Part shown: positions 1 to 64,000 of the stretch, piece by piece
Numbering within the stretch: the first letter of the stretch is position 1
Layout: each line of letters begins with the position of its first letter
Notes under the pieces: generated by a model
Databases searched by the model: none
What the model was told of the DNA's origin: nothing
Seen by the model: only the letters and a program-made list of their open reading frames with translations
IMG/VR virus record: IMGVR_UViG_3300031853_000003
Span: 64,001-128,000 of that record
Origin: a virus
Lineage: Duplodnaviria > Caudoviricetes
DNA: 64,000 nt
Strand: one strand, 5' to 3'
Made by a program: the position numbers and the translations under genes

Positions 1-135
1 GATCCTGATGTATACACCATTGAGGACGATCGTACTCGTGGAGTTACATCGCCCAGACCTGCTGTCAATCCGATTATGGGTACAATTGGTGACGCTATAT
101 CTCTTGCAGAAGATGAATGGAAGCAGGGAAGCTAA
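1..135 (+). CDS. 3' end of a hypothetical (probably tail/baseplate) protein, truncated by the window
   Basis: Frame 1 is open from base 1 (DPDVYTIEDD...EWKQGS*); its TAA overlaps the next ATG (TAATG). Confidence 0.6.
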   Translation, partial: DPDVYTIEDDRTRGVTSPRPAVNPIMGTIGDAISLAEDEWKQGS

Positions 136-9296: not shown

Positions 9297-9350
9297 TCAA
9301 ATCGTTAAAGTACACATAATCGACAATACTGCGCACGGAGGCAATAGATT

Positions 9351-33466: not shown

Positions 33467-33889
33467 GGGCGTGCCAGGTTTCGACGGGGCGCGAGAACAA
33501 ATAAGCTACGCTAGTATGCCACCGCTAAAGGGGCAACCTAAAAATAACTGACAAAGTTGTTTCTATTCACCCCGCTGCTATTGCTGCTCTTTTCGCAAGA
33601 AAGGCTGTAGCTTAATCAGCGATTTCGGGTACCAAAACGATATGGCCTGCTACTCGACGCATATCTGAGGTTCAAGGAAGTAGTAGCATCACAGTTCGTC
33701 ATCTCTGTAAAAGATGACTGGTGGAGCGATGAAACTTTTTCATCCCTAAGAGGGTAGCTGCCCTCAAGCTTCGGCTTGAACCAAACGACGTTGACAACCC
33801 GTACACAGCTTGAAATTTGTCTATGGCGTAAGAAATGCTTATTCAAGTATTCGTTTCGGACGCGGGTTCGACTCCCGCCACGTCCACCA
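33467..33889 (+). ncRNA. ssrA: tmRNA (transfer-messenger RNA)
   Basis: GGGCGTG/CACGTCC acceptor stem with G3.U70, GGTTTCGACGGG 5' motif, T arm GCGGGTTCGACTCCCGC, ACCA end; tag ORF 33550-33615 after AATAACT. Confidence 0.93.
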
Positions 33890-60522: not shown

Positions 60523-61293
60523 TCAATCTTCGATGAAATCAACCTGTTGTTGTAATGCTGTTCGGAGCTTCTTTTCTGCTCCTGGTAATAGTCGTTTCAG
60601 TTCCCAGAAGTCTAGACCGTATATGTCCGCCATCTCATACAGCTTATCATCTGTGAGTCTACACTCTTGAGAAACCATTTCATGTATAAGCAATTCTTCG
60701 AGCGAATTGTAATTGTCATTCATTGTATCAAGAATACTTGTGTGTTGTTTTGGAGCTTCTATAAACAATGCAGACGTTTCTAGATCTGCCCAGTACACTG
60801 TTCCGAATATGGCCTTGAGAGAGTTTAACTTATCAGCTGGTAGATTTACTTTACTGAGATCTTCGTAGCGTACTTTGCCCCAATGCTTGCCAAGCTGTGC
60901 ACCTGCTTCCATACACAACGACCGTCTTACTGAATACTTGACTTCGTTGAGCTCTCGTTCAATCATCTCACCTACACGAGGTTTGAAAAACACTGTGAAT
61001 GATAGATCCTGACGATATCCCTTATGATTCTCATCGCCTTTCCACTTGTACCACCACCAGCATTCACAAAAATGCATCAGAGCCGATTGAAACTTATCCT
61101 CGTATGTAACAGATGAATTATGTATGTAGGTATGTGTAGCAACATATCCAAAGAACGCATAATTGAGTTCAACTATTTCATCCCGAGCATCTAAACACTT
61201 TATTCGCTGTTCTTTATCTTGTGGAAGTGAGTCATATATCTCAAGTGTTCGTTGTTTTACTTGTTCTGATTTTGATAACTTGTTATCCGCCAT
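60523..61293 (-). CDS. divergent sigma70-family phage sigma factor
   Basis: ARDEIVELNYAFFGYVA...YEDKFQSALMHF...SFTVFFKPRVGEMIERELN aligns by eye to sigma region 2; C-terminal HTH-like region 4 segment. Confidence 0.6.
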   Translation of the reverse strand: MADNKLSKSEQVKQRTLEIYDSLPQDKEQRIKCLDARDEIVELNYAFFGYVATHTYIHNSSVTYEDKFQSALMHFCECWWWYKWKGDENHKGYRQDLSFTVFFKPRVGEMIERELNEVKYSVRRSLCMEAGAQLGKHWGKVRYEDLSKVNLPADKLNSLKAIFGTVYWADLETSALFIEAPKQHTSILDTMNDNYNSLEELLIHEMVSQECRLTDDKLYEMADIYGLDFWELKRLLPGAEKKLRTALQQQVDFIED

Positions 61294-61489
61294 ATACGTC
61301 TTTCCTTCACAATACACAAAGTACTTCGCCTAATTCTATAACGATTTCCATTCAATTATTCATCAATTTGTTGGTTTTCGCCAAAGTTTGAAGAATTGGC
61401 CAAAAACGCCAAAGTTGATAGATTTCATCAGAATCATAAAATTTTTCTTATGAAATTCAAATGAAAATTATCCATCTTCCTACAATAAA

Positions 61490-61518
61490 ATTATATAAAA
61501 TTCTGGGTGAAAAGTCAA
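61490..61518 (-). promoter_or_regulatory. host sigmaA promoter for the sigma-factor gene
   Basis: Minus-strand TTGACT-17 bp-TATAAT. Confidence 0.8.
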
Positions 61519-61524
61519 GTGGTA

Positions 61525-62154
61525 TCACAATATTTCTATATCAGATGGTTCTTCGCCATCAAGATAGAACTTCCGTAGTTGATCAATAGACGACATAGTT
61601 TTGCCATATTCTATAACTTCTCCTGCACTTATGAATAGCCCCTTAGACGGATATACATAGGACCTGCTATCAAGGAATTCAAAATGATATCCAAAACAAT
61701 GGTCCCCACTCTTGCAAGCAGCTTCAATGGCGTATCTCGGAATACCCAGTATAGCTTCTGCAGCCTGTAATGTTGTGAATACTTTATCAAGTTCTTTGCA
61801 CAGAACTTGTTTACCAGTATACTGTCCAGTTCGATAACCATGAAGTGTATTTTCTGCATAAGTAGACCACTCTAAGTTGGTGACACAGTTGTTGGACTTG
61901 TTACCATCTATGTGGTTGACGACTTTCTTATTCTCAGGATTTGGTATGAACGCTGTTGCTACAAGTGTATGAACACGCGGTTGTTTACCTAGAATTGACA
62001 CAGTTTGATATCCATCAGTTGTTTGGTGCAACTGTACATAAGATACACGATCTCCATAGTTGATGCGAATACGTCCTTTGTTGGATACCTCATATCCTAG
62101 CGGATACCCTTCCATATGTTCCCAGTATTCTTTTGGCGCTACAGGTGAGCTCAT
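61525..62154 (-). CDS. NUMOD4-HNH-NUMOD1 homing endonuclease
   Basis: YEVSNKGRI, VHTLVATAF, VNHIDGNKSNNCVTNLEW; GGAGG RBS. Confidence 0.88.
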   Translation of the reverse strand: MSSPVAPKEYWEHMEGYPLGYEVSNKGRIRINYGDRVSYVQLHQTTDGYQTVSILGKQPRVHTLVATAFIPNPENKKVVNHIDGNKSNNCVTNLEWSTYAENTLHGYRTGQYTGKQVLCKELDKVFTTLQAAEAILGIPRYAIEAACKSGDHCFGYHFEFLDSRSYVYPSKGLFISAGEVIEYGKTMSSIDQLRKFYLDGEEPSDIEIL

Positions 62155-62203
62155 AGTTATTCCTCCTAAATGATTGATATGTAGTTCTATGACGAACAGC
62201 TTT

Positions 62204-62232
62204 ATTATAAGATATACATACAAATTTGTCAA
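62204..62232 (-). promoter_or_regulatory. host sigmaA promoter
   Basis: Minus-strand TTGACA-17 bp-TATAAT. Confidence 0.85.
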
Positions 62233-62331
62233 TACCTTTTTGGATGTTTTTTGTTGAATTTGTCAGACTCTTTATTGATTACAGTTGAAAGTTAAATGAG
62301 TAATTTGATTGAAAACGTTCAAATCTGTGTA

Positions 62332-62480
62332 TACAAATTCGGCTGAAAACAGTAACACATGGTACAAATTCGGCTGAAAAACACCAAGTTGACCACATAA
62401 ATATAAAATATATATAATAAATAATATATAACAAACATTATATCAAAAAATAAAATAATTAAATTATTAAGTAAAATTAA
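62332..62480. repeat. 18-bp direct repeat pair plus AT-rich tract (origin-like)
   Basis: TACAAATTCGGCTGAAAA at 62332 and 62363; almost pure A/T at about 62398-62480. Confidence 0.55.
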
Positions 62481-62567
62481 GCCCTGGTGTGATTTTACTA
62501 GTGATACGCATTGACGTTGTTTCATGCGGTTTTTCAAAAATTTTCTTGAGAAATTTTGATTTACCCC

Positions 62568-62596
62568 TTGACAAAATTCTTCGTAGGGCTTATAAT
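62568..62596 (+). promoter_or_regulatory. host sigmaA promoter
   Basis: TTGACA-17 bp-TATAAT. Confidence 0.85.
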
Positions 62597-62602
62597 AACA
62601 CA

Positions 62603-62786
62603 TGTAGTCAATAGACAGAATTCAGCGAAGTGAGGACGTTGGATTTGTGAAGCATGGTGAGATGGCGCCTCACTCGTCGTCTTACACGGTTTCAATTTTA
62701 AGGTATTCCGAATGTCCCGGGAACATTGTCGTGAGAAACCTGCCGGAAGAGAGTGCTTCATGAATCCAACGTCCTCACTTTTGCTA
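62603..62786 (+). ncRNA. candidate sigmaA-driven structured RNA (6S-like rod)
   Basis: About 31-bp closing stem, 62624-62654 with 62754-62785, containing G.U pairs; internal hairpins. Confidence 0.55.
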
Positions 62787-62834
62787 TGTGCGATTCGTCA
62801 TATACTATGAAGAGATTTAGAAAGGTGGTGTACT

Positions 62835-63731
62835 ATGGACATATACGGTGCAGAACAGAATGCAAAGAAACTGCTCAAATATGTTCAAGACATCGCTGCT
62901 AACAGACCAAGAATGTACGGACCTACTCGTGACAGATTGAAGCACGTTGCGTCAGTCTGTGAGAGTATTGTAGGAACTGTATCAGCATTCTTAGAAGAGG
63001 AGATCCTCGCTGCTGAAGATACAGAGGAATTTGAAAGAGATAATTCAGACATACAAGATGTTCTATCTAATATCCAATCCAGTATCTCGCAGTTGCAGAA
63101 TTTCATCACACCTCAACCTGTAGTGAGTCAAACGTCAGAGGGTCAAACTTCAGATAAGTTGTCGTCGCAGAATAAGAAGAAACTGGTTTCTATCTACTTC
63201 GATATGCTGAACAAGACTCGGTGTGACGAGAGTAAATCTGCTCAAGAGTGTGTAGATATACTTCGACTATGGTATCGAAGTAGATTCTTTGATTCTAAGA
63301 ATACTGGGTTCAGATACAATGTGCGTAGGATACCTTCTTGGATAATCAGCATTGTAATAGCATATGGCAAAAGCATACATGACGGAAATCAGTCATCATT
63401 TGTCTACACGTTTACAAGCTGGTGTGAGTCACTGAAGGAGAAAGATGCGTCTGTACCATATGCTGTTCCATATGATATATATCAGATATGCTCTAACATC
63501 TCCGCAGATGATATCACATTACAGGCTGTAATACTTTGGGACATCTTATGGAGTAATGGGTTCAATAGAATTGATCAGTCTGAGGATGATTCATATGAAT
63601 CGGCGGTGTATCAGAAATGTGTCGAGTTGAATCCATCTGAATTAGATAAGTATCGGAACTATCAATCTGATTCATCTGTGATACGAGAATTTCATCTAGA
63701 TTATTCATCATCAGGAGGTGAAGTCATATGA
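62835..63731 (+). CDS. hypothetical protein
   Basis: AAAGGTGG RBS; 298 aa. Confidence 0.6.
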   Translation: MDIYGAEQNAKKLLKYVQDIAANRPRMYGPTRDRLKHVASVCESIVGTVSAFLEEEILAAEDTEEFERDNSDIQDVLSNIQSSISQLQNFITPQPVVSQTSEGQTSDKLSSQNKKKLVSIYFDMLNKTRCDESKSAQECVDILRLWYRSRFFDSKNTGFRYNVRRIPSWIISIVIAYGKSIHDGNQSSFVYTFTSWCESLKEKDASVPYAVPYDIYQICSNISADDITLQAVILWDILWSNGFNRIDQSEDDSYESAVYQKCVELNPSELDKYRNYQSDSSVIREFHLDYSSSGGEVI

Positions 63732-64000
63732 ATATAGAATTCACTCAGATTCCAGACAAACTGAAGTACCCGCCTAGGCACAAAGCAATTTTATCTACTA
63801 TGCACTCTGATGTAATCGCCTATGTGTCATCACATTTCAAGAATACGTATTCATATAGATCTAAAGTAACTGCTGTGATGAATACATTATCATATATCAT
63901 ACTCAACGGAGAGGCTATGCCATTCAGTTGGAACCCTAATGCTCCGCTGAGTTTAGATACTGTAGATGAGTTTATGTGTAAGTCATCACTAGGTGATCTG
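63728..64000 (+). CDS. hypothetical protein, truncated at the window end
   Basis: GGAGGTG RBS; ATGA overlap; open to base 64000. Confidence 0.55.
   Translation, partial: MNIEFTQIPDKLKYPPRHKAILSTMHSDVIAYVSSHFKNTYSYRSKVTAVMNTLSYIILNGEAMPFSWNPNAPLSLDTVDEFMCKSSLGDL

Follow-up and report, generated by a model that had tools for sequence, protein, structure and literature searches.

A conserved plus-strand RNA family between an origin-like region and the replication genes of uncultivated phages: a possible leader attenuator with a competitor loop

Introduction

6S RNAs (RF00013; 6S-1 and 6S-2 in B. subtilis) sequester core polymerase together with sigma, and an alternative pairing of 6S-1 drives release after pRNA synthesis. 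In lambda, the nutR/boxB-tR1 module is located upstream of the replication genes O and P, and the N leader has an RNase III-sensitive hairpin. The rep-leader attenuators of Firmicute plasmids (pT181; pIP501/pAMbeta1 family) use two mutually exclusive pairings of the terminator 5' strand (preemptor versus terminator), with an antisense countertranscript as the switch. About 10 bp suffice for a terminator, whereas RNase III requires roughly 20 bp of double-stranded RNA. The early RNAs of SP82/SPO1 are cut by Bs-RNase III; like those of T7, these sites span 40-60 nt with an internal loop and are found repeatedly between genes. Lactococcal c2-type phages have as their origin the non-coding DNA that separates the first two early promoters, and its non-coding transcript, PE1-T, is considered crucial for replication; these origins need host proteins only (PMC7150918).

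Here, an element from an uncultivated phage of about 155 kb is compared with these systems. It shares with 6S RNA a predicted length of about 185 nt, a long closing stem, a promoter of the housekeeping-sigma type and a built-in alternative pairing. Its fold, a three-way junction or a simple hairpin, differs from that of 6S RNA, as do its terminator U tract and its role, in several phages, as the leader of a gene. Like the lambda nutR/boxB-tR1 module and N leader, it follows directly on an early host-type promoter, precedes replication genes and combines a phage-specific hairpin loop, a candidate terminator that would gate the genes behind it and a hairpin long enough for RNase III. Unlike the lambda modules, to which it has no sequence or covariance model (CM) relation, it has neither boxA/boxB nor an identified N-like protein, and its hairpin loop can pair with the 5' strand of the element's own terminator; lambda has no such loop. 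With the pT181 and pIP501-type attenuators, it shares the position of a leader before replication genes and next to an origin (here putative), and two mutually exclusive pairings of the terminator 5' strand. Its differences from them are that no antisense promoter was seen at the element in the promoter scan, that the competitor is included in the terminator hairpin and that the stem is three times longer. As at phage RNase III sites (T7 R0.3 to R1.3; SP82/SPO1), a long hairpin separates an early promoter from the first gene in a phage whose host possesses RNase III; in contrast to the T7 and SP82 sites, the element occurs once per genome, encloses a structured interior of 36-150 nt and has a U tract. 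Like PE1-T, it would be a non-coding transcript from a first early promoter, ending before a second promoter, located in or next to an origin and type-specific in sequence (PMC7150918). By analogy, its action would come nearest to that of plasmid rep-leader attenuators and of the lambda early-operon control region; it is a member of neither.

The element belongs to an uncatalogued family of structured RNAs with strong covariation support, found in a clade of uncultivated phages of 90-250 kb whose relatives occur in Ruminococcus genomes and in gut or rumen Clostridia assemblies. A covarying decoy loop in an outsized candidate terminator is an unusual design. Since the RNA is located at the junction of a likely origin, a rare host-type promoter and replication genes, it offers a handle on the timing of phage replication. 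The 6S label, tempting for an RNA of this kind, is unsupported and is corrected below.

Genes surrounding the element

The window (the whole stretch of 64,000 nucleotides that was analysed) corresponds to bases 64001-128000 of a 155,391-bp IMG/VR virus record, whose termini overlap exactly over 127 bp. Positions are those of the window unless given as genome positions. The left-hand neighbours of the element are a DUF932 gene (+ strand), a gene encoding a 264-aa protein (- strand), an HNH/NUMOD4 gene (- strand) and an intergenic region of 600 bp. The HNH/NUMOD4 gene (61525-62232) encodes a homing-type endonuclease and is flanked by the 264-aa gene and the origin-like region. Among the relatives, L125/L127 and L128 have it and L126 does not, as expected of a mobile insertion.

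On the right, a plus-strand block includes, in this order, p298, p372, p208 and genes for a DnaB-type helicase, an RNase H (PF00075, 1e-44) and a DnaG-type primase; an 874-aa ORF is found further on. The first gene of this replication block, p298 (62835-63731, + strand), is fast-evolving. Its product has no Pfam match, no PHROGs match and no usable ESM Atlas match, and the protein search found no relatives of it in the 'phages' set or in IMG/VR. The second gene, p372 (genome 127728-128846, starting at 63728), likewise encodes a protein devoid of a Pfam match and of a usable ESM Atlas match. Its alignment gave no match to PDB sequence profiles, and its model (pLDDT 90) gave nothing in Foldseek at E <= 0.001 and nothing in VIA at Z >= 5. 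The product of p208 has no family match and is taken from its position to be a helicase loader.

The sigma-like protein and a phage-type promoter motif

The 264-aa protein (60523-61317, - strand), which is transcribed divergently from the replication block, has a fold resembling that of sigma factors. Its AlphaFold model has a pLDDT of 81, and all of the top approximately 50 PDB matches found by Foldseek are sigma factors (probability 0.63-1.0, E 2e-3 to 0.2). This likeness was identified by the fold search alone; no match was found in Pfam, in PHROGs or among PDB sequence profiles. The 'adjacent phage sigma' of the preliminary description is thereby supported at the level of the fold, and the protein may be a very divergent phage sigma, transcribed from the divergent promoter on the origin side.

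The next gene had also been said to have a TCGTCA motif of its own. This motif, TTCGTCATA (62794-62802, + strand), begins 8 nt past the closing stem and is a variant of a phage-type promoter-like motif, [AT]TCGT[TC]A[TA]A, which is strongly strand-biased and is found in front of genes genome-wide: 36 copies are on the + strand versus 6 on the - strand of the whole genome, and about 15 of the plus-strand copies lie 15-36 nt upstream of a Shine-Dalgarno (SD) sequence and start codon. Examples are found at 9301, 20980, 28795, 50248 and 62794. Equivalent places in relatives carry the motif AATCGTTATA. Plausibly, [AT]TCGT[TC]A[TA]A is a candidate class of single-element promoters read by a phage sigma.

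Origin-like region and host-type promoter

The region from 62241 to 62561 (no strand assigned) is inferred from its repeats and base composition to be a likely, still putative, replication origin. It includes an AT-rich tract and two 18-bp direct repeats, TACAAATTCGGCTGAAAA, at 62332-62349 and 62363-62380 (spacing 31). The 200-nt windows with the lowest GC content of the whole 155-kb genome are all located within it, and the consensus promoters on its two flanks diverge and are inverted repeats of one another. Relatives have an AT-rich tract and iterons, unrelated to these in sequence, at the equivalent place. GC skew gives no location for the origin in the 155-kb genome, because nearly all genes are on one strand.

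The promoter on the right flank (62568-62596, + strand) is of the host sigmaA/sigma70 type, TTGACA-17-TATAAT, and matches the consensus at 12 of 12 positions, so that it had rightly been called perfect. The transcription start is predicted near 62603, and the closing stem begins about 20 nt later. Such promoters are rare: only 7 sites fitting TTGACn-16..18-TATAAT are found in the 155-kb genome, 4 of them clustered at this locus. In the family described below, a similar promoter is found 9-64 nt upstream of the outermost G-C pair of the stem in 15 of 25 members (these being related, this and the other counts out of 25 do not refer to independent events), and a recognisable sigmaA-type promoter within 110 nt is missing in the other 10.

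The three further consensus promoters of the genome (genome 35838, 96353 and 133082; the second at window 32353) are near-identical, TTGACTTTT...AATCCGTCTATAAT. They may form a small regulon of host-type promoters that share a spacer element.

Structure of the RNA in the window

The closing stem, P1, is formed by AGCGAAGUGAGGACGUUGGAUUUGUGAAGCAU (62624-62655, + strand) and GUGCUUCAUGAAUCCAACGUCCUCACUUUUGCU (62753-62785, + strand). It includes 32 pairs, 4 of them G.U, with one bulged U and no A.C mismatch, much as first described (a long closing stem with G.U pairs and one bulge). The minimum free energy (MFE) of the fold is -77.8 kcal/mol (z = -7.0), and none of 200 shuffled sequences is as stable; in a comparison of strands, the + strand gave -75.8 and the - strand -63.6. 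The 5' arm is G-rich (12 G versus 3 C over 31 nt from 62625). The 3' arm has a GC-rich base, CGUCCUCAC, followed by UUUU (62779-62782).

P1 encloses P2 and a head arm. P2 (62657-62685, + strand), defined by homology and covariation, is an 11-bp hairpin with a 7-nt loop, CCUCACU (62668-62674). The inner GTGAG/CTCAC hairpin of the preliminary description is not the conserved fold; CCUCACU is a loop. This loop repeats the CCUCACU of the 3' arm (62773-62779) and is complementary to AGUGAGG in the 5' arm (62629-62635, + strand). The head arm (P3-P5), with its junction strands (62686-62752, + strand), carries the family-conserved stretches ACGGUUUCAAUUUUAAGG and CCGGAAGAGAG.

The transcript is predicted to be about 185 nt long, from about 62603 to about 62786-62790, which fits the promoter and the U tract. 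The discrete early RNA that had been proposed is probably made, to judge from the promoter, the terminator-like U tract and covariation.

The RNA family

Relatives were collected via the helicase and then via the p372 alignment, which gave 56 IMG/VR loci sharing the gene order. At the syntenic site, between an iteron/AT-rich origin-like region and replication genes, 26 distinct elements were found in related uncultivated phages. Their closing stems have 23-38 bp and differ in sequence, the enclosed interior of 36-150 nt is structured, and the folding z-scores of all elements are between -4 and -11. The element occurs in one copy in each of the four full records with a CM match, and the family has no conserved ORF.

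A CM built from three relatives (L147, L154, L179), with the window element excluded from the seed, finds the window copy with 72.5 bits (E = 2e-18); minus-strand scores are always far lower. When 7 distinct members are aligned to the CM, 96.6% of the cells pair and 38 of 48 modelled pairs show compensatory change, in an alignment that is itself fitted to the model; none of 500 shuffles reaches the observed value, and slid controls pair at 31-46%. The covariation check proposed in the preliminary description thus favours the fold. Among 711 P1 pairs of 25 elements, 74 are G.U and 6 are A.C (binomial 5e-16), G.U pairs making up 10% and mismatches being few. Since G.U is far above A.C, selection sees the plus strand as a single strand; together with covariation, this bears out the earlier claim of selection on the plus strand.

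Two forms are found. The large form is a three-way junction of P1, P2 and the head arm P3-P5 (window, L134, L140, L147, L150, L153/L168, L154, L179, L167, L189). The small form has P1 and one or two hairpins (L129, L132, L137, L144, L160-L174, L165, L166). About half of the family lacks the head arm and consists of plain hairpins of 90-120 nt, with the stem and one inner hairpin. Large and small forms occur side by side among close relatives, which marks the head arm as dispensable and leaves P1 and P2 as the core. The unpaired stretches conserved in the large form are ACAGUUCC-AUUUUA and GCUGGGAGAGAGG.

Homology within the family is apparent solely via structure and short motifs. A nucleotide search of 'phages' with the region gave no match, and blastn and nhmmer searches with the RNA against the first five relatives gave nothing. 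A 14-nt stem pattern gave only chance matches in viral contigs. The arms were unreliable in a MAFFT alignment of all large-type members; the CM was therefore seeded from three well-aligned members.

In Rfam 15, no family matches window positions 61000-64000 at E <= 10 (cmscan, permissive filters) and none matches seven other family members at E <= 1; literature searches found no description of the RNA. The element is the window copy of a new, conserved and uncatalogued family of non-coding plus-strand RNAs.

Terminator signature and leader position

In the window, the GC-rich base CGUCCUCAC and the UUUU that follows it are the features of an intrinsic terminator on the transcribed strand. In 21 of 25 members, 5 or more of 7 nt at the P1 3' end are U, versus 18% of random windows; the mirror control, an A run on the 5' side, gives 3 of 25. 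The element is not listed by a simple terminator scanner because the scanner accepts only loops of 3-8 nt. U tracts are stronger in members with a separate TCGTYA motif downstream (5.6 versus 4.7 U in 7; p = 0.007).

In several relatives (L153/L168, L167, L172, L132, L150), an SD sequence or start codon is found 12-31 nt after P1 with no promoter motif in between, so that the gene can be expressed only by read-through and the element is its leader. Where relatives are devoid of the RNA (L135, L149, L152, L158, L162), the slot is occupied by a short terminator of the ordinary kind together with AATCGTTATA motifs. Taken together, the leader position, the link between U-tract strength and the downstream motif, and these short terminators suggest that the slot has a conserved job, which is to halt or meter the transcription that arrives from the origin-side promoter before it enters the replication genes.

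The competitor loop

In sequence, the P2 loop repeats the 3' arm, being the reverse complement of part of the 5' arm. Loop and 5' arm of the same element can form 6 or more consecutive Watson-Crick pairs in 20 of 25 members, versus 3% for shuffled arms and 2% for arms of non-cognate motif classes. An alternative pairing that competes for a strand of the terminator, as in attenuators, is thus available in these 20 members. Loops fall into six motif classes (CCGCA, CCUCAC, CCUGCA, CGGCAU, CCGGUAU and GCUACGACC), and loop and arm change together between lineages. The target of the loop is usually in the lower part of P1, beside the U tract. In the window, the duplex of the loop region with the 5' arm, flanks included, has -19 kcal/mol. 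In nascent RNAs devoid of the 3' arm, the MFE structure pairs the arm with the loop motif in four small-type members (L137, L160, L161, L165).

Because loop registers shift between rows of the CM alignment, column-wise counting of loop-arm pairs was dropped and a per-sequence test was used instead. Targets of the P2 loop in trans are not enriched in the phage genome (23 8-mers found versus 28 expected).

One element, L129:286-407, carries a second inner hairpin right after the first. The loop of each is GCCUGCAA and is complementary to one and the same segment of the 5' arm, so that the decoy hairpin is duplicated.

Proposed mode of action

The element is here read, with a confidence that stays somewhat short of even, as a leader or attenuator that would meter early transcription by the host polymerase into the replication genes and leave a stable terminated RNA. 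Host RNA polymerase with sigmaA would initiate from the consensus promoter that borders the origin-like region and transcribe the G-rich 5' arm, P2, the head arm (in the large form) and the C-rich 3' arm, in this order. The 32-bp P1 would zip behind the polymerase, and its GC-rich base with UUUU would act as an intrinsic terminator, releasing a very stable RNA of about 185 nt with paired ends. Termination would limit the early host-type transcription that runs into the replication genes, and a fraction would read through to p298 and onward. Before the true 3' arm is made, the P2 loop, an internal copy of the terminator 3' strand, may hold the 5' strand of the stem base; this antiterminator-like pairing would set or regulate the fraction of read-through, possibly via a P2-binding protein. 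Cleavage of P1 by host RNase III, expected from its 23-38 near-perfect bp, would separate the folded head from the read-through mRNA.

The action of the loop in cis is probably limited in time. From helix lengths, a loop on an 11-bp hairpin is estimated to be unable to reach the stem base once the upper 20 bp of P1 have formed, and P1 is far more stable than the loop-arm pairing. Competition in cis would thus be brief unless it is stabilised by a factor or acts in trans. Moreover, the conservation of 23-38 bp in P1 and of unpaired nucleotides in the head arm suggests that the RNA has another partner, outside the proposed scheme.

An unlikely extension of the attenuator reading is a self-timing switch. 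The free P2 loops of early terminated copies would pair in trans with nascent 5' arms and cause read-through into the initiator and helicase genes; or a phage protein would read the loop, as N reads boxB. Bound in trans, a loop would be free of the limit that the length of the P2 hairpin sets in cis, and could block completion of the terminator base. If true, this would be an unreported kind of antitermination, with a decoy of the terminator strand inside the terminator's own loop.

Alternative explanations

A doubtful alternative is a stable early small RNA of about 185 nt acting in trans, which would titrate a host or phage protein or pair through the P2 loop; the 6S-like RNA of the preliminary description is one version of it. 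The rarity of the promoter (one of only 7 host-type consensus sites) and the divergent transcription of the sigma-like gene from the same region would suit such an RNA; so would the stability suggested by paired 5' and 3' ends and a very low folding energy, and the conservation of unpaired head-arm nucleotides across distant members. However, the covarying partner of the P2 loop is the RNA's own arm and its targets in the phage genome are not in excess, about half of the members have no head arm, and several phages have the element just as a leader to the following gene. The 6S version is very improbable. The proposed comparison with RF00013 gave no 6S match at E <= 10 in 61000-64000 and none at the gathering score in the whole window, nor did the element match any other Rfam family; the consensus fold is P1 with a three-way junction, devoid of a central bubble between closing and terminal stems, and about half of the members are plain hairpins. 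Two testable defining features of 6S RNA, a CM match and a rod with a central bubble, are thus absent. Furthermore, a 6S RNA would not help a phage sigma that itself needs core polymerase. Among the fallback readings of the preliminary description (antitoxin, decoy or replication-control RNA), it is the last that comes nearer to the attenuator reading. The length of P1 has its own, rather improbable, explanation: an RNase III processing stalk or mRNA-end element only, in which cutting of P1 would set the 5' end and the stability of the replication mRNA, with no role in termination. P1, with 32 bp in the window, is a candidate substrate (at least about 20 bp of near-continuous double-stranded RNA). 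Its 23-38 near-perfect bp in all members exceed both this requirement and the need of a terminator, and the leader position straight after an early promoter is suitable. This explanation nevertheless leaves aside the strand-specific U tract, the link between U-tract strength and the downstream promoter motif, and the covarying P2 loop.

Two further explanations arise from the neighbouring origin-like region. It is unlikely that the RNA, or its transcription, activates the adjacent origin, whether through topology, a transient R-loop of the G-rich 5' arm or an RNase H-processed primer for phage PolA; in this explanation, the 3' arm and the P2 loop would serve to limit the RNA-DNA hybrid. The promoter abuts the iterons and the region of lowest GC, relatives show the same arrangement of iterons, AT tract, promoter and RNA in unrelated sequences, G exceeds C in the 5' arm of 22 of 25 members, and RNase H, primase, helicase and a candidate PolA are encoded directly downstream; the PE1-T transcript of c2-type phages is a precedent (PMC7150918). 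However, PE1-T (about 330 nt), folded for comparison, has no long closing stem and no comparable fold (z = -0.37). A tightly self-folded, terminator-ended transcript would be a poor persistent hybrid or primer, transcription heads away from the AT-rich tract, and GC skew is uninformative. A folded signal in plus-strand single-stranded DNA, such as a priming site of the sso/ssi or Frpo-like type exposed on opening of the origin, is barely credible. DNA hairpins tolerate G.T wobbles, so that strand asymmetry alone fits both RNA and plus-strand DNA, and the element adjoins the origin-like region. Yet the consensus promoter at a short and fairly constant upstream distance (15 of 25 members), the U/T tract on the 3' side only and the ribosome site directly after the element in several members are signals of gene expression, of no use to a DNA hairpin, and for these reasons an RNA is favoured.

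Hosts and other features of the phages

In a scan of bacterial genomes, homologues of p372 were found in the chromosome of Ruminococcus callidus ATCC 27760, in R. flavefaciens 007c and in Clostridia MAGs. The kind of host is suggested by these homologues, gut or rumen Clostridia being the likely hosts of the 155-kb phage. The R. callidus locus (L188, 1534609-1543712) and the R. flavefaciens locus (L191) hint at integrated or carried relatives; the RNA was not found in either locus.

p372 is kept across the whole clade and has invariant motifs such as YVVRRYLLERD and NIIKYPH (alignment A7). It is fused to p208 in L152, L158, L162 and L177 (575-617 aa). The first three of these loci lack the RNA, and L177 has only an atypical long stem, devoid of a loop complement and of a U tract.

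The phage also carries a tmRNA gene (33467-33889; Rfam, 72 bits), with the tag peptide DKVVSIHPAAIAALFARKAVA, and six tRNA genes (Gln, Met, Leu, Glu, Pro, Ser), located between 34072 and 39619.
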